Source of the DNA: Eledone cirrhosa
Lineage: Eukaryota
NCBI GenBank assembly: GCA_964016885.1
Contig: OZ024762.1
Coordinates: 19,840,001-19,904,000, forward strand
DNA length: 64,000 nt
Reading direction: 5' to 3'
The notes below the pieces were generated by a model. It saw only the letters and a program-made list of their open reading frames with translations. It did no database searches and was not told the DNA's origin. The translations under genes and the position numbers were made by a program. Shown here piece by piece: positions 121 to 49,896 of the stretch. Each line of letters starts with the position of its first letter. Positions within the stretch are counted from its first letter, which is position 1.

Positions 121-240
121 AGTTCTCTCTATCTTTCTTCCTCTCTCTCACACACTCTTTTTCTCTAGTCTATCTGACACTCTCTCTTTGTCTTTCTCCT
201 CGCATCTCCCCCCTCCCTCTCTCCATCCCTTTCTCTCTTT
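1..240. repeat. CT-rich low-complexity/(CT)n microsatellite
   Basis: Visible (CT)n runs and pyrimidine-only sequence. Confidence 0.9.
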
Positions 241-468
241 ATCAAAGCCTGTCTCCTGCCCTAGTTAGCATGTACCTTTAGCAGCAGTCAGGAGGAATGA
301 CCTAGCTAAAAATACCACCACAACACCACTGCCAGCAACACCACCAACAATACCACCAAGATACCAGCAACACCACCAACAACAACATTGTCCAAGCTCT
401 AGTCAGACCAGGTCATTATAGACTGAGAGAGACAGGTGCTCTCTTACTAATCAGCATCTCCCTAGGCC

Positions 469-1400
469 GTCCAAGCTCCACACTGACCAGGTCACAGCGG
501 ACATAGAATGCCACGTGCCCTCCACATCACCGTAAGTTGTCCAAAATTCACACTGACCAGGTCACAGTGGACATAGAACGCCACGTGCTCTCCACATCAC
601 CGTGAGTTGTCCAAAATTCACACTGACCAGGTCACAGTGGACATAGAACGACACTTGCTCTCCACATCACCGTGAGTTGTCCAAAATTCACACTGACCAG
701 GTCACAGTGGACATAGAACGCCACGTGCTCTCCACATCACCGTGAGTTGTCCAAAATTCACACTGACCAGGTCACAGTGGACATAGAACGCCACGTGCTC
801 TCCACATCACCGTAAGTTGTCCAAAATTCACACTGACCAGGTCACAGTGGACATAGAACGACACGTGCTCTCCACATCACCGTGAGTTGTCCAAAATTCA
901 CACTGACCAGGTCACAGCGGACATAGAACGCCACGTGCTCTCCACATCACCGTGAGTTGTCCAAAATTCACACTGACCAGGTCACAGTGGACATAGAACG
1001 CCACGTGCTCTCCACATCACCGTGAGTTGTCCAAAATTCACACTGACCAGGTCACAGTGGACATAGAACGCCACGTGCTCTCCACATCACCGTGAGTTGT
1101 CCAAAATTCACACTGACCAGGTCACAGCGGACATAGAACGCCACGTGCTCTCCACATCACCGTGAGTTGTCCAAAATTCACACTGACCAGGTCACAGCGG
1201 ACATAGAACGCCACGTGCTCTCCACATCACCGTGAGTTGTCCAAAATTCACACTGACCAGGTCACAGCGGACATAGAATGACACGTGCTCTCCACATCAC
1301 CGTGAGTTGTCCAAAATTCACACTGACCAGGTCACAGCGGACATAGAACGCCACGTGCTCTCCACATCACCGTGAGTTGTCCAAAATTTACACTGACCAT
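469..1400. repeat. 70-bp tandem minisatellite, ~13 copies
   Basis: CCAAAATTCACACTGACCAGGTCACAGTGGACATAGAACGCCACGTGCTCTCCACATCACCGTGAGTTGT recurs every 70 bp (541, 611 ... 1381). Confidence 0.97.
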
Positions 1401-1441
1401 GCGTCATGATTAAATGATTGGAATTTTACCACACATATATA

Positions 1442-1480
<39 letters not shown>

Positions 1481-1483
<3 letters not shown>

Positions 1484-1604
1484 AACAAGTAGGGCCCCGA
1501 CGGCTGAGCTCAAGCCGTTTCGACGGCTAATTCGGGACTAAATTTAGTCCAAAATTAGCCGTCGAAACGGCTTGAGCTCAGCCGTCGGGGTCCTACTCGT
1601 TCCT
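1481..1604. mobile_element. 124-bp near-perfect palindrome (foldback/MITE-like) embedded in (TA)n
   Basis: AGGAAC...GGACTAAA|TTTAGTCC...GTTCCT, symmetric about 1542/1543 with ~4 mismatched pairs; flanked by TA on both sides. Confidence 0.75.
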
Positions 1605-2009
1605 ATATATATATATATATATATACGGACGTAAAATGATGATGATGATGAGGATGTATGTGTATATACAAAAAGGTTTTGAGGATTCGGCCCCACGGCG
1701 CTCTCTGGAATAAGTGAGTGAAAAAGAAGATATATACTGGCGTCCACCTGGTTTGGCAATCTGGAAGACATGATGATTGCAACAAGATCATGTGATGAGA
1801 GTTATGTTAGTAGGTTCTCATCAAGTTCATTGTTTCTGAGGAAGACTGATATGTATCTAGGATATTGTGACAAGAAATACGTGGTGACATAACCACTATG
1901 TCCCAGTCAAAATATCAATTTACCATGGTCAATCAACCCTCTGAAACGATAGTAAAACAAAAAATTAATTAAGAATCTATCTTTGTATTTTTTTTTATTT
2001 TCGTTGTTC

Positions 2010-2070
2010 AATACACACACACACATGTGTGTACATATGTATGAATATATATAAACACATATGCAAGCAC

Positions 2071-2142
<72 letters not shown>

Positions 2143-2286
2143 GATTGTACATGTGTGTATATATGTATATATACACACACACACACACACATGTGTGTAC
2201 ATATGTATGAATATATATATATAAACACATATGCAAGCACGTGTGTATATATATATATATATATATATAAACACATATGCAATCAC

Positions 2287-2339
<53 letters not shown>

Positions 2340-2501
2340 CATACGATTGTACATGTGTGTATATATGTATATATACACATACATACACAGTTTCCATATA
2401 TTGAAACAAAGATATAAAATTTCAATCTATTTGCTAGACCTGAAGTGTGTATGTATGTGCATATGTTTGTGTATGTATGTGTGTGTGTATATGTATGTAT
2501 A

Positions 2502-2532
<31 letters not shown>

Positions 2533-2560
2533 GCATATATATATATATGCATATATATGC

Positions 2561-2614
<54 letters not shown>

Positions 2615-2622
2615 GTGTGTGT
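2010..2622. repeat. Compound (TA)n/(CA)n microsatellite with internal duplications
   Basis: Dinucleotide runs; explains the YI/HT/CV-repeat ORFs. Confidence 0.95.
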
Positions 2623-2992
2623 GTCATCTCACCAAACCACTTCAAGATGCCATTATTTTTTTCCCCTTTCTTAATTTACATAATGTAATATATTGGTTGA
2701 CAGGAATCTGTGATGTGTTGAAATTGGAATATTGAAGATGTCATAAAGGGCCCTAGGTGGGACTTTGTGATGGGAAAGCTTCTTTAATTTGTTGGGATAT
2801 ATTAAAATCTATTCTGAGAGACTAGTTTCAGACCCCCTTTTTTTTTTTCTTGCTTGTGGGCAACTCAGAACGGTTGGTGTGTCCAAAGATGGTGACTCCT
2901 GTAAAGAAATAATAGAAGAGATCTTTTAACCCCTTTGATACCAAAACACCTCCCTCTGTTTTTATAATATATTAATCCTTTAGTATTTACAT

Positions 2993-3415
2993 TACATGCG
3001 ATGCTGCATGGTAGCAACTGCAGAGGATATGCAACAGCTGGAGAGAAATGAGGCAAGCATGCTCCGTTGGATGTGCAGTGTCAATGTGCGTGAACGACCC
3101 ACCATGGATGTGTTGAGAGAGAAACTGTGTCTGAGAGCGATAGAATGTAGTGTGCTAGAGAAGAGACTGAGGTGGTATGGACATGTGATGGAGGATGACT
3201 GATGAGTGAAGAAGTTCCAGGTGAAGGAAGACGTGGTAGAAGTAGACCACGAAAAACATGGGCGGAGGTGGGGAGAACAGACCTCAGATTGCTGAAGCTC
3301 ACGGTGGAGATGACGAAGGATCGTGACAAGTGGAGAGATGCTTTGCTGAATAGGACCCGTCTCACCCTTGCAAGCAGGGAAAAGCGGACGTAAAATGATG
3401 ATGATGATGATGATT
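2993..3415 (+). mobile_element. RTE-clade LINE 3' fragment with (TGA)n tail
   Basis: Translates to LERNEASMLRWMC...RLRWYGHVM...GRSRPRKTW, homologous to the C-terminus of the 46.5-48.4 kb RT; ends GGACGTAAAA(TGA)n. Confidence 0.9.
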
Positions 3416-3609
3416 ACTCTATATTTACTATTGTATTTTCACACTAAAGGCTTTATCTCACATAATATTGAATCTATGAGATTTTGAAGTTATTTGTTTT
3501 GAGAACAATACCTTAACGTCAGTATGAGTGGCTGGTTACAGCCAGTTTTAACAGAAAGAGCTGAGAGATTTCTGGCCAGATACGGCCAGTTTAAATGCTA
3601 ATGGGTTAA
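3416..3609 (+). mobile_element. piggyBac-like MITE (family P), left-truncated
   Basis: Same internal sequence as 25291-25790; ends TAAATGCTAATGGG-TTAA. Confidence 0.8.
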
Positions 3610-3644
3610 GCTCCTTGTTTAAAAAAAAAAAAGCTTCCTTGTTT

Positions 3645-4085
3645 CATCATCATTTTACATTCGTTTCTCTGTGTTTGCATGGGTTGGATAGGTCCTTTTC
3701 TCTCTAGTTGTTGCATTCTTTCATCATTTTCTCTGTGAGTCTCAGCAATCTGATATCAGCTCTCACCACCTCCGCTCAAGTCTGTCTATGTCTACCTCTA
3801 CAGCGGCTTCCTTCCACTGACATATCCTGGCACTTCTTCACTCAGTGATTATCATCCATCCGCATCACATGTCTGTACCAACACAGTCTTCTCTCTTGCA
3901 CACCATTTTGGATTCTTCTTAAATCTAGTTTCTCCTTCAGTTCATTCAAGCTTTACCTCTCTCTCACATTTCCGTTGCACATCCAACGAAGCATGACTGC
4001 TTCATTTCTCTCCAACTTATGCATGTCCTTTGCAGTCACTGCCCATCTTTCACTATCATGCAGCATCACACTTTGCACATGACAT
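3645..4085 (-). mobile_element. Degenerate RTE LINE 3' fragment
   Basis: Reverse complement encodes LERNEAVMLRWMC-like and YRHVMRMDD-like segments; CAT tail at 3645-3653. Confidence 0.8.
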
Positions 4086-4096
4086 GGCGTCATATA

Positions 4097-4775
4097 TATT
4101 TATCTAAAAACCTTCCATCATAATTTTATGTAAGAGCCTTTGTTAAGTTATATTCCAAATACCAACTTAATGAGAAACTAAGTTATTTGACTAAATCTCT
4201 CCAAATTCTTGACTATTTTCCAAATTATTTGAAAATTATAGGCAGTGTCTTTCATTAAAAATATATTAATGAAAAATTTAAAGTGTGTGTAAGAACCTTT
4301 GTTAAGTTATGTTCCAAATGCTGGTTGAATGAGAAAGTTAGCTTTATTACTAAACCTTTCCAATTTTTTGTTATTTTCAAAATTATTTGAAAATTATAGG
4401 CAGTGTCTTTCATTAGAGAATATGGCAAATGTTTTTCATTAGAAAATATATTAATGAAAAAGTTGAAATGTGTGTGTTTATCTAAAGTCCTTCCATCCTG
4501 ATTTCATGTAAGAACCTTTGTTAAGTTATGTTCCAAATGCTGGCTTAATGAGAAAGTTACTTATATTACTAAACCTTTCCAATTTTTTGTTATTTTCAAA
4601 ATTATTTGAAAGTTATAGACAGTGTCTTTCACTAAAAGTATGTTAATGAAAAATGTAAAGTGTGTGTAAGAACCTTTGTTAAGTTATGTTCCAAATGCTG
4701 GCTTAATGAGAAACTTAATTATATTACTAAACCCTTCCAAATTCCTGTTTATTTTCAAAATAATTTGAAAACTAT
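4097..4775. repeat. Tandemly amplified AT-rich dispersed repeat (MITE family M), ~4 partial units
   Basis: TAAGAACCTTTGTTAAGTTATGTTCCAAATGCTGG... recurs ~every 170-220 bp; homologues at 11370-12444 (reverse) and 34630-34860. Confidence 0.75.
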
Positions 4776-22094: not shown

Positions 22095-22969
22095 ATAAAT
22101 GTATGTATATATATATATATGTGTATATGTATATATATATTTGTATGTATATATGTATATATATGTATATGTGTATATGTATATATATATATGTGTATAT
22201 ATATATGTGTATATATATATGTGTGCGTGTGAGTGTGTGTATTAAAGTTTTTTTTTCCTTTCCAGGTAATATATGCACAGACACACACACACACACACAC
22301 TACATATATATATATTCTTCCTGGTTTCTTAAACAGTGATATTTTATTCATATATTAAAAAAAAGAAAAAAATTCCATCTATCTCTTCCTTTCTTTTCTT
22401 TTTACTTTCCTCCTGTTATCTTCTGCTCCTCCTTCTACCCTGGTACCACCACCACCTCCGCCACCCCTGGTACCACCACATCCTCCTACTTCTCCCCTAG
22501 TACCATGACCACCTCCTCCTTCTCCCCTGGTACCACCCCCACCTAATTCTTCTGATACCAATCTTCAGAACTCTGCCATTGTTGATGGTTAAGAAAGGAA
22601 GGTTATCTGTCTGACATAAATACCAGTTCCATCTTTATAATTAACTGTTAGGTTCAATATTGTTGCTGTAGCCGGTTGCTATTGTTGTTGTAGTTGTTGT
22701 TGCAGTTCTTGAAAACACCCCTCACCAGAATCTCACTTTATTGTTGAGTTGATGTATAGCAAAATAAAAAAAAATAAAAAAATAAAAAAATAAATAAAAT
22801 AAATAAAAAAAAAATAAATAAATACTAGTAATAATAAATATTAAATACAAACAAATAAAATACAAAAATAAAAAAAAATTTACCATTGAACTTTCTTTTG
22901 GAAAGTATTTCACTGGAAACTTGACACAAAGAACTTCAGTGCAAACAGTGAAGATCATTCTATGATGCA

Positions 22970-23357
22970 GGCGGCATGGTTGTGTGGTTAAAGCAGATCA
23001 CTTCACAGCCCTATGTGGTTCTAGGTTCAGTCCCTCTGCGTTGCACCTCGAGCAGGCAAGCGTTCTGTACTGTAATGTGTTGTTTCCTTGAGCAAGACAC
23101 TTTATTTCACGTTGCTCCAGTTTACTCAGCTGTAGAAGCGGTCGTGTAGGTGCCACGGCAAAAAAGCACCCAGCACTCACTGTAAAGTGGACGTGTAGGT
23201 GCCACGGAAAAAAAGCACCCAGCACTCACTGTAAATGAGGTTGGTATTAGGAAGGGCATCCAGCTGTAGAAATCAAGCCAGCATCAGTTCCCGTCCCACC
23301 CTTGCAAGCAGGGAAAAGTGGACATAAAGTGAAATGATGATGATGATGATGATGATA
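22970..23357 (+). mobile_element. SINE family A variant (tRNA-like head, CORE-like body, RTE tail)
   Basis: CCTTGAGCAAGACACTTTATTTCAC; TTAGGAAGGGCATCCAGCTGTAG; CCCTTGCAAGCAGGGAAAAG-(TGA)n. Confidence 0.85.
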
Positions 23358-23796
23358 TATATGTAACGAAGATCACTAGTATTAAGTCAATGTTCTCCGG
23401 CCAACATCTAGCTCACTCAATGAATCTGCCGAATTGCAGTAATGTAGCCACAACCAGCTGTTCAGTGTGCACACATTTAGTTAGCAGTTAGGGTGGCTGT
23501 GTTTTTGTAGAGATAAAAGTAAACAGCTCAAGTCCTGGACGATATCATTTCTCTGCAACATAACTTCACAAATACAGATATTAGATCTGCAATGTTCAGA
23601 AAGTCACGTAATATCAGCAGATATATATATATGTATATATATGTAAGAGGTGAGTTTTATTGTAGTACAATAAAGCAATGCAGATATCGGATAAGTAGCA
23701 CTCTACAGTTTGTAGGACTGGAGTATAAATAATAATATGTTGATTTAAAACTGCACTATTCACAAGTGTGTTTTAACCTTCATATAATGTCTCCCA

Positions 23797-23865
23797 ATTT
23801 TATCTGATGAAAACGCAAATGTTATTGCATGATGATATTTGTTTTTGAAATGCGCATAATAAAAT
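23797..23865 (+). ncRNA. Minimal type-I hammerhead ribozyme motif
   Basis: Stem I ATTTTAT/ATAAAAT; core CTGATGA (23804-23810); ~16-bp stem II; GAAA; palindromic TGCGCA stem III; TA cleavage site. Confidence 0.7.
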
Positions 23866-23925
23866 ACATGGAACTCTTTTAACCATCTTTTGATCTTATA
23901 TATATATATATATGTATATATATAT

Positions 23926-24261
23926 GGAGGCACATGGCTTAGTGGTTAGAGCATTGGCCTTTCAATCGAAAGGTTGTGAGTTCAGTTCTCAGACTGGGTG
24001 ATGTGTTGTTTCCTTGAGCAAGACACTTTATTTCACATTGCTGCAGTTTACTCAGCTGTAGAAATGAGATGATAGGGACTGGGGTCCCTATTATTCCACT
24101 GCAAAGTGGTCGTGGAGGTGCCACGGCAAAAAAGCACCCAGCACTCACTGTAAATGAGGTTGGTGTTAGGAAGGGCATCCAGCTGTAGAAATCAAGCCAG
24201 AATCAGTTCCCGTCCCACCCTTGCAAGCTGGGAAAAGGGGACGTAAAATGATGATGATGAT
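23926..24261 (+). mobile_element. SINE family A, full length
   Basis: A box TGGCTTAGTGG, B-box-like GAGTTCAGTTC, CORE-like body, RTE-derived tail and (TGA)n; near-identical to 37567-37901 and 57024-57365. Confidence 0.93.
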
Positions 24262-30459: not shown

Positions 30460-31670
30460 CTGTGTCTTTTATTATAAATATGGTAATGAAAGGGCTACAG
30501 AAGAATAAGCTGAGGAACTTAGTACTGTCGCTATTTGTTAGCAGAGAAAATACACATTAAATGATGATTGTGGAAATGAATATGTGACGTGTGAAAATGT
30601 AACTAGAATTCCATTTATTTCTTGAAATCAAATTCTGCAAACCAGTCAACAGAATTATATTATGTGTTGTTCTTCTATTATATAAATTATTATTATTATT
30701 TATTATCATTATTATGATTATTTATTATTTTCATTTTCTTTTTAATTTTACTTTGTTTCTGTCAGGACAGGGCAAATTGCATTTTAATGCAATCTTTGTT
30801 TGGAAAGAGTTTTAAAAAATATAAAAAATGTATTTTAGCTGACAAGACCAGCTAAGTTATCTTAGAGATTAAATATTTTTGTTGATCTGCACTTTAATCT
30901 ATCAAGAGTTGAACTGAAATTGAATATTTATTGGTTCAAGTTTTTAAATAAACAGTGAAGTCATTTCACAACAAAAATATATAAATATAAATATATATAT
31001 ATATTTGTGTTTGATTTTAATTGAATCCACTGGGAAGACAAGCTATTTCATTGTTTTTATATTATTAAAATATATTTTTTTAATTACCTTTTTTAAAACA
31101 TTTTTGTAATATTGGATCTGACAGTTTAAACAGTGGAAAATAAGATAAAATTGTTTTTAAAAAACATTAAGGTATTAGATGTGAAGTTTTGTTGTTTACT
31201 CTGAGAAATTATTTAACTCTTAACATCCTGAACCACACAAGACAGCATGAAGAAGATGTTCTTGAAAAGTATAATACAGCACTCTGGCTGTGCTATATGA
31301 AGAATGAATGCCTTTGCCTTAACGCTGTACATTTATACTGTGCTCTGTCCCTGTATGTGGACTAGTGTGGTTTGGTGTGTTGTGTTCTTGGACAAGACAC
31401 TTCATTTCACGTTGCTTTTTATAATAGGACTGAGACCCTTATCATTAAAAAGACCCACAAAATTTTCTTTGAGATACAACCTCATAAGAGGCCAGCTATA
31501 TCTGCAGAGTTGAGAGCTGTACATTTCTTCTCTTTTTTTTTCCTGCACTACCCCAGGGTGTTAAATTCCCTGGTGTTAAAGTACTGCCCTTGCGACAAGT
31601 CTTCAGTTATCCTACTTTTCAAGTTAGCAACATTATTATTAATTTTTTTGTTTAAATTCTTTTTTTTTTT

Positions 31671-43685: not shown

Positions 43686-43789
43686 TATATGTATATATAT
43701 ATATATGTGTGTGTATATGTATATGTGTATATATATGTATATATATATGTGTATATATATATATATGTGTATATATATATATATATATA

Positions 43790-44670
43790 TCATCATCACC
43801 GTTTTACGTCCGTTCTTCCACGCTAGCATGGGTTAGACGGGTTGTCCTGTTGTGGGCAGTGTCTGGTCGGCTGACCATGCCTTGCTCATACAGGAACTGA
43901 TCTGGCTTGATTTCTACAGCTGGATGCCCTTCCTAACACCAACCTCATTTACAGTGAGTGCTGGGTGCTTTTTCGTGGCGCCTACACGTCCACTTTACAG
44001 TGTGGGCTGGGTGCTTTTTTGCCGTGGCACCTCCACGACCACCTTGCGGTGGGGGGGGGGGGGCATATTGTTTATATGCTTCAGCATGTACCCATGGGAG
44101 GTCGGGTACCCTGTATTACTGCGTGACGCCAGAAGTCACGGTCGTGTGTCATTGACTTTGAGAGGTGTAGTTGGGTAAGGTCGGCTTTTATCACCTCATC
44201 CCAAGTCATCTTGGGTCTCCCCACTCCGCGGTTTCCATCAACTTCTAGTGCTCTGCACCTTTTTATGCAGCTGTCATCCTTCATACGCATCACATGTCCA
44301 TACCAGCGTAACCGCCTCTCCTGCACGCAGCATTTGATTCCTCTTATGCTCAGTCTCTCTCTCAATTCATTTATGCTTTGTCGTTCACGTATATTACTGT
44401 TACACATCCATCGGAGCATGCAGGCTTCGTTTCTCTCTAATCTACGTAAGTCTTCCACCTTCAGCGCCCAGGTCTCACTACCATGCAACATCGCTGTTCG
44501 GATACACGCATCACACAGTCTGCCTTTCATTCTGAGGGAGAAGCCTTTTGCAGCTAGCAGTGGTAGTAGTTCCCTAAACTTCTTCCATCCCGTTCTTACC
44601 CTAGTTATTGTACTTTCTGAGCACCCACCTCCGTTGCTAATTCGGTCACCTAGGTAGCAGAAGCTGTCTA
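43790..44670 (-). mobile_element. Young RTE LINE, 5'-truncated, near-identical to 47821-48702
   Basis: Translation [11 protein letters not shown]...RPPMGTC differs from the long copy at only two residues; same 3' UTR. Confidence 0.95.
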
Positions 44671-45573: not shown

Positions 45574-45605
<32 letters not shown>

Positions 45606-45649
45606 TACTTCAAAATATTTAAAAATATAGACATTCATGTGATCAAATA

Positions 45650-45715
45650 TATTTTATTATACATATTTCAGAGGTACTGAGGTATTTCAACAGTACGTCC
45701 TCATCAGATAAAATA
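45650..45715 (-). ncRNA. Minimal type-I hammerhead ribozyme motif
   Basis: Minus strand: TATTTTAT-CTGATGA-GGAC GTACTG[11-nt loop]CAGTAC CTCT-GAAA-TATGTA-TA-ATAAAATA; perfect 8-bp stem I. Confidence 0.72.
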
Positions 45716-45787
45716 AATTGATGTCTGACATACCTTGACTGTGTTGGTGGTTAAAATTCATTATATATATATATATATATATATAAA

Positions 45788-45830
<43 letters not shown>

Positions 45831-45845
45831 TATATATAAAATCTG

Positions 45846-45903
<58 letters not shown>

Positions 45904-46051
45904 TACATATATCTAAGTAGAACGGATATTTAATTTGTTGGGAATTCAACAAATATAAATGTTTATAACTGATTCAGAACACTCGACAGCTTTCTGGAGT
46001 AAATATTCAATGATATTAAATAAATGGAAACTATATTTATAAAATCATATT

Positions 46052-46113
46052 TATTCTATTATATATATTTCAAGGGTACCAAAAAGTTTGGTACGCTTTC
46101 ATCAGATAAAATA
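46052..46113 (-). ncRNA. Minimal type-I hammerhead ribozyme motif
   Basis: Minus strand: TATTTTAT-CTGATGA-AAGC GTACCAAA CTT TTTGGTAC CCTT-GAAA-TATATA-TA-ATAGAATA. Confidence 0.72.
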
Positions 46114-46558: not shown

Positions 46559-48410
46559 GTGTGTCAGAGATAGTTGTGATGTCATTGGAGAGAAGTGTAT
46601 CCGGAATGATAAAGGTGAGCTTGCCCTCACAAGTGCTGAGAAGAAAGATGCATGGAAGAGTCATTATGATAGATTACTAAATGAGGAGAATGCATGGGAA
46701 GAAGAGACCCTACCCCACGTAGACCCTATAGAGGGACCAGCAGTACAAGTCAGCGGCAGCGTAGTAAGTAAGGCAATCAGAGATATGAAGATAGGGAAGG
46801 CAACCGGTCCATCGGGTATAGCTGCCGAGATGCTGAAGGCATCTGGGTCTGTAGGTCACACTATAACCACACGTATCGTTAACCAGGTAATACTAGAGGG
46901 GGCCATACCAAAAGATTGGTGCAGTAGCATCATTGTCAACTGCTACAAAGGTAAAGGCGATGCACTAGATAGAGGAAACTATAGAGGTATAAAGTTGATG
47001 GACCAGGTCATGAAAGTAACAGAAAGAGTTATAGCACAGCTGATTAGGGACCGGGTGAATATAGACGAGATGCAATTTGGGTTTGTACCAGGGAAAGGCA
47101 CCACTGATGCGCTCTTCCTTGTGAGGCAATTACAGGAAAAGTACCTAGCTAAAAGTAAGCCACTCTACTTGGCATTTGTCGACCTTGAGAAAGCCTTTGA
47201 CAGAGTTCCACGTGCAGTAATCTGGTGGGCTCTTAGAAAACTAGGAGTAGATGAATGGCTTGTGAAAGCGGTACAAGCCATGTATAGGGGAGCAGTCAGC
47301 AAAGTTAGGATTGGCAATGAGTATAGCGAGGAATTTAGCGTACAGGTTGGGGTCCACCAGGGCTCTGTTCTTAGCCCTCTCCTGTTCATCATAGTCCTGC
47401 AGGCAATAACGGAGGAGTTTAAGACCGGATGCCCATGGGAACTCCTGTATGCTGATGACCTCGCACTCATAGCTGAATCTATGGTAGAACTAGAGAATAA
47501 ATTCCAAACCTGGAAGCAGGGACTAGAGAGAAAGGGCCTCAAAGTCAACATGACAAAGACTAAGGTCCTTATAAGTAGACGAGAAAACAGAACCCAGATC
47601 CCCTCAGGGAAATGGCCTTGCTCAGTATGTAGGAAAGGTGTAGGTAGGAACTCCATTCTTTGCCCCAAATGCAAACAATGGGTACACAAGAGATGTAGCG
47701 GGATCTCAGGAAGCTTAATTAAGAATGTAGGATTCACATGCAGCAGCTGTGCTGAAACAGCAAGCAAACAGCCACAGGAAACAAGTACCACCAATCTCTG
47801 GGAGGGCCCTGTAGAAACAGTAGACAGCTTCTGCTACCTAGGTGACCGAATTAGCAACGGAGGTGGGTGCTCAGAAAGTACAATAACTAGGGTAAGAACG
47901 GGATGGAAGAAGTTTAGGGAACTACTACCACTGCTAGCTGCAAAAGGCTTCTCCCTCAGAATGAAAGGCAGACTGTATGATGCGTGTATCCGAACAGCGA
48001 TGTTGCATGGTAGTGAGACCTGGGCGCTGAAGGTGGAAGACTTACGTAGATTAGAGAGAAACGAAGCCTGCATGCTCCGATGGATGTGTAACAGTAATAT
48101 ACGTGAACGACAAAGCATAAATGAATTGAGAGAGAGACTGAGCATAAGAGGAATCAAATGCTGCGTGCAGGAGAGGCGGTTACGCTGGTATGGACATGTG
48201 ATGCGTATGAAGGATGACAGCTACATAAAAAGGTGCAGAGCACTAGAAGTTGATGGAAACCGCGGAGTGGGGAGACCCAAGATGACTTGGGATGAGGTGA
48301 TAAAAGCCGACCTTACCCAACTACACCTCTCAAAGTCAATGACACACGACCGTGACTTCTGGCGTCACGCAGTAATACAGGGTACCCGACCTCCCATGGG
48401 TACATGCTGA
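46557..48410 (+). CDS. RTE-clade LINE ORF, 5'-truncated: reverse transcriptase plus PHD-like finger plus C-terminal domain
   Basis: Uninterrupted frame with [47 protein letters not shown] motifs; no APE endonuclease; first 46 aa of the track ORF are (TA)n artefact. Confidence 0.95.
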
Positions 48411-48714
48411 AGCATATAAACAATATGCCCCCCCCCCCCCACCGCAAGGTGGTCGTGGAGGTGCCACGGCAAAAAAGCACCCAGCCCACACTGTAAAGTG
48501 GACGTGTAGGCGCCACGAAAAAGCACCCAGCACTCACTGTAAATGAGGTTGGTGTTAGGAAGGGCATCCAGCTGTAGAAATCAAGCCAGATCAGTTCCTG
48601 TATGAGCAAGGCATGGTCAGCCGACCAGACACTGCCCACAACAGGACAACCCGTCTAACCCATGCTAGCGTGGAAGAACGGACGTAAAACGGTGATGATG
48701 ATGATGATGATGAT
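46557..48714 (+). mobile_element. Young RTE LINE insertion including 3' UTR and (TGA)n tail
   Basis: ORF followed by ~280-nt UTR ending GGACGTAAAACGG(TGA)n; inserted in TA-rich microsatellite. Confidence 0.95.
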
Positions 48715-48810
48715 GCAAATATATATATATATATTATATAAATATGCATATATATATATATATATATATATGCAAATATATATGTGCAAATATATATGTA
48801 TATATATATA

Positions 48811-49521: not shown

Positions 49522-49896
49522 TCTAGGAGAAGGAAAACTCTGATATAACACCTGCAATGCTGATGGTATCCAATGATGTTGACTTGTTCTTCTTTTTGGT
49601 AAATATCATCTTGGTTAAGAGAGTGGGACTGGCTTTGTGCAGTGCCTTTGCTCACTATAAAAGCTTCACGGCACAGGCATTGCTTTATATCTGGAGATCT
49701 CTCTGCACTTATCGTCACATGGTACCATGGGCCCAGCACTATGTGTCAATAATTGTCACAAGTGTAGTGTTTGTACCAGAGTTTTGAAGTCGCTGGCTGG
49801 ACTAAAAAGTCACACTCGTTCAGCGCATCGGTAGGGGTTCTCCTACATGGATATAAAGTAGTGGCCGTACTCGAAAACGAGTTGGCAGCCACCATA
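49522..49896 (+). mobile_element. Bipartite non-autonomous RTE (BovB-like) element
   Basis: 5'-UTR-like TCTAGGAGAAGGAAAACTCTGA joined to a terminal C2H2-like coding remnant CSVCTRVLKSLAGLKSHTRSAH* and a 3' stem-loop. Confidence 0.65.

Follow-up and report, generated by a model that had tools for sequence, protein, structure and literature searches.

What is the 69-nt motif at 23797-23865 of this window (the whole 64,000-nt stretch of Eledone cirrhosa DNA analysed here), and what kind of element could have carried it there? The first part of the question can be answered plainly, for 23797-23865 is a real type I hammerhead with an intact core. Its sequence and limits had been given by a sequence-only reading of the window and match the letters. 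The parts of this copy, hereafter copy A, are laid out as follows.

23797-23865, plus strand: hammerhead copy A, type I, dimer-type (descriptor scan, folding and core-anchored pair table)
23797-23803, plus strand: 5' arm of stem I
23804-23810, plus strand: core box C3-A9, CUGAUGA, with no extra base ahead of stem II
23811-23846, plus strand: stem II, 36 nt
23847-23849, plus strand: GAA
23850-23857, plus strand: stem III, 8-nt self-complementary AUGCGCAU
23858, plus strand: A17 of the AUA triplet; predicted cleavage after A17
23859-23865, plus strand: 3' arm of the 7-bp stem I

Three helices surround the core, and helix I is open-ended (stem I of 7 bp, stem II of 3 + 12 bp). Stem II of copy A comprises three A-U pairs, a C·U mismatch, 12 pairs, four of which are G·U, and a 4-nt loop; in folding calculations the first three pairs reach probabilities of about 0.6 and the remainder 0.86-1.0. 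Stem III runs from A15.1 (23850) through UGCGCA to U16.1 (23857). It had been described as a hexameric palindrome, and it is indeed self-complementary, its length being 8 nt and not 6 because A15.1 and U16.1 belong to the palindrome.

When a type I descriptor was scanned over both strands of the 64-kb window, exactly three matches were returned, the same number of copies as had been counted by eye. The other two lie on the opposite strand.

45714-45651, minus strand: hammerhead copy B, with a G·U first stem II pair, a C·C mismatch and AUAUGUAU
45597-45762: piece of about 165 bp surrounding copy B, flanked on both sides by TA tracts
46112-46053, minus strand: hammerhead copy C, with an A-U first stem II pair, a C·C mismatch and AUAUAUAU

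The hammerhead core (C3-U4-G5-A6-N7-G8-A9, G12-A13-A14, A15.1-U16.1 and H17) is complete in 3/3 copies. As the sequence-only reading had recognized, all three share the AUA triplet, a 7-bp A/U stem I, and a stem II of three pairs, a C·pyrimidine mismatch (position II.4, unpaired in 3/3) and a longer helix, and the first stem II pair is A-U in A, G·U in B and A-U in C. Of the structural covariation that it claimed, the two-sided changes are seen in stems II and III and not in stem I. Pairs were counted outward from the core, since a MAFFT alignment puts the stem II arms wrongly, and the resulting table revealed two-sided changes at 6 of the first 10 positions of stem II and at 2/4 positions of stem III, although with n=3 copies such changes carry no covariation statistic. 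In stem I, 6/7 pairs are invariant and the seventh has a one-sided change, which therefore represents sequence conservation and not covariation. Past the fifth pair the stem II helices are very different, and judging from their sequences they may have been replaced rather than covaried. The assignment of the copies to one family applies to the ribozyme motif only; the flanks barely align, and A, B and C are therefore probably three related families. Candidate matches of the B and C flanks around 30800-31100 were rejected as A/T-rich noise.

Copies C and B lie on one strand with their cut sites 402 nt apart. Both sit between a LINE at 46571-48734 (plus strand), which we take to be RTE-like and which holds a long open frame for a reverse transcriptase and a PHD finger, and a 914-nt inverted copy of the 3' end of that LINE at 43757-44670 (minus strand, 98% identity). 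Additionally, a single weak C2H2 zinc-finger match (E 0.0015, under the Pfam cut-off) at 49661-49831 (plus strand) is possibly a small exon.

Could such a motif have arisen by chance in A/T-rich DNA? In favor of this, the folding energy of copy A is by itself ordinary (MFE z-score -0.31), and no hammerhead was matched by Rfam, either over the whole window at the gathering score or in local scans to E 10 around A and B (not C by itself). The local scans returned chance snoRNA and sRNA rows, and in a whole-window scan by E-value microsatellite matches dominate among the best 150 of 469 rows. Against it stand 300 dinucleotide shuffles made in 500-nt blocks: 13 held one loose descriptor match, one held a match with a stem I of at least 7 bp, and none combined a fully self-complementary 8-nt stem III with a stem I of at least 5 bp, the stricter criteria having been set post hoc with the motif already known. 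We count the chance reading as refuted by the 0/300, and its probability is negligible. The same direction is indicated by a pattern scan of metagenomes, in which none of the 19 matches by sequence alone carried an octamer self-complementary throughout, versus 3/3 here. The best of those 19 reached 37.9 bits on the three-copy model, a score partly met through selection by the pattern, and all were rejected as family members and taken as chance. In one metagenome match, L001 2498-2568 (minus strand), the two hammerhead boxes enclose a stable hairpin, and this match is perhaps an unrelated hammerhead variant of microbial origin; among viral contigs the pattern scan gave no match. Within the window, the covariance model built from A, B and C (which score 73-87 bits on it by construction) found no fourth copy, the next best score being 17.4 bits, and a fuzzy search for the 5' box across the window revealed no further copy.

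How, then, would such a ribozyme work? As a monomer, stem III amounts to 2 bp and a tetraloop, and its pairing probability on folding is 0.00 in A, B and C; as a dimer it becomes 8 bp. The octamers are self-complementary in 3/3 copies, one of them via G·U pairs. Duplex energies for stem III are -10.5 kcal/mol for A-A, -3.2 for C-C and B-C, -2.2 for B-B, -1.6 for A-B and +1.7 for A-C; from the contrast of A-A with A-B and A-C, copy A is therefore predicted to need a partner of its own family. On these energies C and B, being on the same strand, could pair with each other. A read-through RNA over 45651-46112 (minus strand) could fold a double hammerhead from two families through the 8-bp B-C heteroduplex (-3.2 kcal/mol). 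The first stem II pair had been suspected of reducing activity, and a PLE (Penelope-like element) hammerhead with an A-U first stem II pair occurs (PMC4209133), while U-U at 10.1-11.1 is reported active and palindromic loops III are found in repeat-type motifs (Perreault et al., PMC3088659). The folding model predicts that the 2-bp stem III is the stronger limit on activity and that a partner copy is needed. The three octamers differ yet stay self-complementary and the core is kept, as selection on dimer cleavage predicts.

The second part of the question concerns the surrounding DNA. Public sequencing runs were searched with 23360-23905; 22 are listed, of which 19 contain part of it, and no RNA run carrying it is among the 22. 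Contigs of four of these runs, from four organisms (X1 and X5-X7), were then aligned to this 546-nt stretch at 80% likeness, together with the contig ends that continue elsewhere, and the following parts could be distinguished.

23360-23620: neighbouring separate repeat of lower copy number (depth 170-4500 in X1, 0 in X5-X7)
23621-23642: left TA microsatellite tract, likely insertion target
23645-23734, minus strand: inverted 3' tail of the copy A element, about 90 bp, with two hairpins (contig continuations)
23735-23898, plus strand: forward, 5'-truncated end piece with the hammerhead (depth and loose contig ends)
23899-23925: right TA microsatellite tract, likely insertion target

In X1, 4121 contigs aligned to 23360-23905. 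Summed depth is 170-4500 over 23360-23625, falls to 0 across the left TA run, and steps from 0-170 at 23607-23644 to 2.9e5 at 23645. Over 23645-23891 it amounts to 3e5-2e6, versus 6-14 for individual contigs of the listing; such summed values do not give a copy number, and they are read here only as a sign that the repeat with copy A is very abundant, plausibly with tens of thousands of copies. The runs from the three other organisms (X5-X7) cover 23645-23905 and none of 23360-23644. Thus the repeat of copy A is about 250 bp long, of very high copy and common to four organisms, and the proposal of a real, dispersed and abundant family is upheld. The same coverage shows that 23360-23800, proposed as one decayed Penelope 3' end, spans two unrelated repeats: 23360-23620 is separate, and 23645-23734 is the element's own reversed tail.

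The separate repeat gave no protein match, either in its Pfam frames or in a search for related proteins. A hand count in X1 placed 10 of its 17 majority differences from other copies at one codon position, and about 70 codons of one minus frame are interrupted by just one internal stop, a hint of a decayed coding piece. Two related SINE-like repeats, each with a terminal GAT microsatellite, flank the locus at 23926-24260 and 22960-23340, and parts of them recur many times in the window.

In the insertion, the forward piece 23735-23898 is joined head-to-head to its own inverted 90-bp 3' tail, 23645-23734. Ahead of 23735 each of the four runs shows loose contig ends, the longest of 216 nt in X7, and the forward piece is therefore cut short at its 5' side, with just 62 bp of element upstream of the copy A ribozyme; loose ends also occur past 23891. 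Those past 23734 (X5, X7) and past 23738 (X1) equal the reverse complement of 23885-23899, the 3' end of the forward piece, and therefore the tail directly continues the forward end in other copies. Since the minus strand from 23734 to 23645 continues the forward end elsewhere, 23645-23734 is the element's tail, inverted here. Furthermore, 14 of the 15 joints listed (of 21) connect the tail, at a position within 23672-23734, with the forward piece, at a position within 23734-23878; each joint has sides of 21-28 nt at 80% likeness and comes from one contig. These sequences fit other insertions of the same layout with different break points. TA tracts flank A, B and C, and a target-site duplication at A is indistinguishable from the TA tracts.

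Does the tail occur outside copy A? A candidate was found beside copy C.

45912-46012, minus strand: directly oriented tail of copy C with a TA tract at its end; a relative of the inverted A tail

Among 1268 windows on both strands, the best local match of the A tail lies directly downstream of hammerhead C in direct orientation; the match is modest, since the second-best window scores 29.5 versus 30 and a score of 30 is attained in 81 of 5000 shuffles. The two tails align over their full length and share a motif with 2 occurrences in the window versus none in 100 shuffles, the pattern having been picked post hoc. Each can form two hairpins, placed alike in both tails, with a compensatory A-U to G-C change in the second, and neither folds better than its own shuffles. 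The hairpins of both tails (23645-23734 and 45912-46012), the first of them bulged, may be a binding or priming signal for the reverse transcriptase. The tails open at 23718-23734 and 45994-46020 (both minus strand) with a U-rich run that ends in CAG and looks like a 3' splice site; introns are frequent in this region of PLEs. A frame across the tail is open in A, and a short V-E-C peptide of it is shared in C.

Could a miniature DNA transposon, or another hairpin-ended repeat with an incidental likeness to a hammerhead, account for this locus? The insertion is short, very abundant and TA-flanked, with hairpins at both ends. Its ends, however, are not inverted repeats of each other, the internal joint varies among copies and the whole catalytic layout is kept in three diverged copies, so that this explanation is already largely refuted and must be called highly improbable.

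PLE insertions are described as 5'-truncated, often with an adjacent inverted piece, and with a tail at one end only (PMC8557442). All three traits are present at A, and at C the tail is direct and of modest score. From this we consider it likely that copy A, within its 250-bp insertion, belongs to the truncated 3' end of a Penelope-like retroelement, with predicted dimer-only cleavage after 23858 in the AUA triplet. The link to Penelope that the sequence-only reading had drawn gains support from the insertion layout; no PLE protein was found, and the limits 23360-23800 were wrong. In particular, where a GIY-YIG domain had been anticipated, Pfam found no match in six frames of 23355-23800, nor any family, GIY-YIG included, once three frames behind C were added (9 local frames). 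On 132 frames of the unmasked window it detected no PLE reverse transcriptase or GIY-YIG, the sole clear match being to the reverse transcriptase of an unrelated LINE. For the 32-residue open frame in the tail there was no match among 1.84 billion proteins, weak evidence for so short a query, and the nearly open frame at 23382-23621 had none among 10 candidates, which is weak evidence as well. Both ATG frames in the motif of copy A stop within 14 codons. Because PLE enzymes are absent from the frames scanned, PLE membership rests on architecture and not on enzymes.

As to the clade, Neptune and Naiad elements favor microsatellites, and Naiads are without canonical hammerheads (Craig et al. 2021, PMC8557442); a Naiad is therefore unlikely for the copy A element. 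By analogy, the TA target suggests the Neptune clade, which is otherwise recognized by a CX2-5CxxC linker and RT phylogeny; on this assignment we would not go beyond even chances. Against the PLE reading, the tail is about 90 bp here versus the published 30-40 bp. The repeat landscape of the window resembles that of an octopus genome. Octopus genomes carry many Penelope families (PMC13282606, PMC8967140), and hammerheads are unmentioned in the portions of these two accounts that were compared.

The lack of coding sequence in the frames scanned, together with the very high abundance, would also suit a non-autonomous, non-coding hammerhead element, i.e., a dispersed retrozyme monomer or a SINE-like PLE derivative borrowing a PLE protein, whose ribozyme would cut unit-length RNAs that may circularise. 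Retrozymes do carry type I hammerheads, and axolotl HHR_Amex2 has a 2-bp helix III with a tetraloop and a helix II mismatch (PMC7229834); they have been argued to derive from PLE ends and to occur as dispersed monomers (bioRxiv 10.64898/2026.07.22.740005), and the proximity of C and B on one strand points the same way. Nevertheless, no tandem unit occurs in the window, C and B differ and have a TA tract between them, break points vary, the family extends at least 216 nt further upstream in X7, and the canonical loop 1-loop 2 motif is absent. We hold this origin to be rather unlikely, and its insertion chemistry would equal that of the PLE explanation.

The truncated PLE end would have arisen by the following steps, several of which have a parallel in the Poseidon PAc element of the green anole. 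There, two internal sites downstream of the hammerhead serve as starts for reverse transcription, and the tail extends from one to the other; A/T-rich DNA is cut, and extended, on both strands; and the ribozyme cuts only with protein present, while catalytic mutants still insert in vitro (PMC11167929). In the copy A element, with a stem III too weak alone, two transcripts or two tandem copies would form the 8-bp helix III, and the dimer would cut a long (tandem) precursor RNA, probably slowly and, by analogy with the anole, perhaps only with an element protein bound. Insertion would begin with nicks made by the element's endonuclease in both strands of a TA tract, and a single RNA would then be reverse-transcribed from two start points, the far and the near ends of the tail. 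This would yield the tail by itself and, separately, the 164 nt that lie upstream, and joining the two would give the layout at 23645-23898. Such two-strand priming on one RNA resembles the twin priming of L1. Copy A itself, for which neither promoter nor reading frame was found, is probably a dead copy, and its ribozyme would matter only if a host transcript reads through it.

Alternatively, the fold may persist because the retroelement enzyme binds to it or primes on it, with no RNA cutting in cells. PLE hammerheads cleave weakly in vitro (PMC4209133), and in the anole element insertion in vitro was unaffected in the catalytic mutants, while the cut site coincided with the end of no RNA read (PMC11167929). 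Moreover, stem I is sequence-invariant and the first stem II pair is not G-C. Speaking against it, three diverged families retain every core base, the NUH triplet and a self-complementary octamer, and the variants listed among paralogues avoid the 5' side of the motif. In the 40 of 84 variant rows listed, all at or before 23837, none of the 14 variants of 23770-23837 falls in 23798-23814, i.e., the stem I arm, the core and the base of stem II (P about 0.01, listed rows). A binding function without cleavage thus appears quite improbable. All 6 listed variants at paired positions of stem II keep the pair, which is not significant (P about 0.25) because most transitions there would do so. At 23815 and 23821 copy A has G·U where most copies carry A-U, and is therefore somewhat worn, with its core intact. 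The A/G differences in stem II at 23815-23837 may be retrocopied A-to-I editing or plain transitions, which are not separable.

It is tempting to go further and to see here a distinct PLE hammerhead subclass, in which the C·pyrimidine mismatch of stem II docks on the invariant A/U stem I in place of the loop 1-loop 2 contact, host transcripts are cleaved in trans and the joints record twin priming. We regard this combination as unlikely. If it were true, host transcripts would be able to cleave each other by means of tens of thousands of copies that have an intact core and octamers specific to their families, and twin priming from two fixed start sites on a single RNA would be recorded in the exact tail-plus-body joints. 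A tertiary docking site at the mismatch, should it be confirmed, would be a new way to stabilise a dimer hammerhead.

Where does the truncated PLE end with its hammerhead stand among known systems? PLE-type motifs number in the thousands per genome, with a palindromic helix III and weak dimer cleavage (Cervera and De la Pena 2014, PMC4209133), and the variants published there include ones with A-U as the first pair, with AUA as the triplet or with a bulge in helix II. Like these, our copies are of type I, with a CUGANGA/GAAA core, a palindromic helix III and a long helix II, in many diverged families per genome and mostly found singly on truncated elements. Read by machine, the alignment in Fig. 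S3 of that paper gives the D. willistoni PLE motif an A-U first pair, a palindromic tetraloop and the AUA triplet, and that of M. japonicus an A-U first pair with no extra base. Unlike the published motifs, ours have a fixed-sequence, all-A/U stem I of 7 bp versus 2-5 bp typically, lack G10.1-C11.1, and in 3/3 copies carry the C·pyrimidine mismatch at the fourth helix II position, which differs from the alignment rows compared; the exact combination is absent from those rows. The min-HHR consensus (over 80%) of G10.1-C11.1 with an extra base between A9 and 10.1 is replaced here by A-U, G·U and A-U with no extra base; published PLE variants deviate from that consensus too, and the copies are therefore a variant and not strict min-HHRs. 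The dimer-type trait, a palindromic 15.2-16.2 plus loop 3 with a helix III unstable as a monomer, is found in 3/3. The dimer model of small PLE hammerheads is stated in a review (PMC6765202) citing Lunse, Weinberg and Breaker (RNA Biol 14:1499), whose hammerheads, as reviewed there, share with ours the diminished palindromic stem III, the dimer cleavage and the PLE link.

With Neptune and Naiad insertions the copy A element has in common TA microsatellite targets, 5' truncation, an adjacent inverted piece and a one-end tail (PMC8557442). With PAc (Frangieh et al. 2024, PMC11167929) it shares a hammerhead followed within about 130 nt by a two-ended tail, A/T-rich targets and a tail stem-loop with an A/C-rich side, whereas the PAc frame starts in the hammerhead and the ATG frames of copy A close within 14 codons, the PAc tail is 30-40 bp versus about 90 here, and no protein was recovered here. 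Non-LTR retrozymes (PMC7229834; bioRxiv 10.64898/2026.07.22.740005) likewise have a type I hammerhead in a non-coding repeat, and axolotl HHR_Amex2 (PMC7229834), with its 2-bp helix III, tetraloop and helix II mismatch, cleaves better as a dimer; unlike retrozymes, our family shows no tandem units of 170-400 nt in the window, no canonical loop-loop motif, and variable truncation with an inverted tail.

In the literature compared on hammerheads, octopus, Neptune and pLTRs there is no account of the copy A family, which the alignments of Lunse et al. or file S2 of PMC8557442 may contain. Just three features are without a match in the published accounts compared: the mismatch fixed in stem II, the sequence-invariant stem I and the two-hairpin tail of 90 bp. 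As one more family of a described class, it therefore matters mainly for annotation. More promisingly, its abundance in four organisms permits a well-powered test, through covariation and core conservation, of selection for PLE hammerhead cleavage, which is left open by the published work compared, and its many tail-to-body joints offer a genomic read-out of the two-start-site priming model, shown in vitro for one element. By analogy with these systems, copy A would work like the published dimer-type PLE hammerheads, and is most likely one of them.
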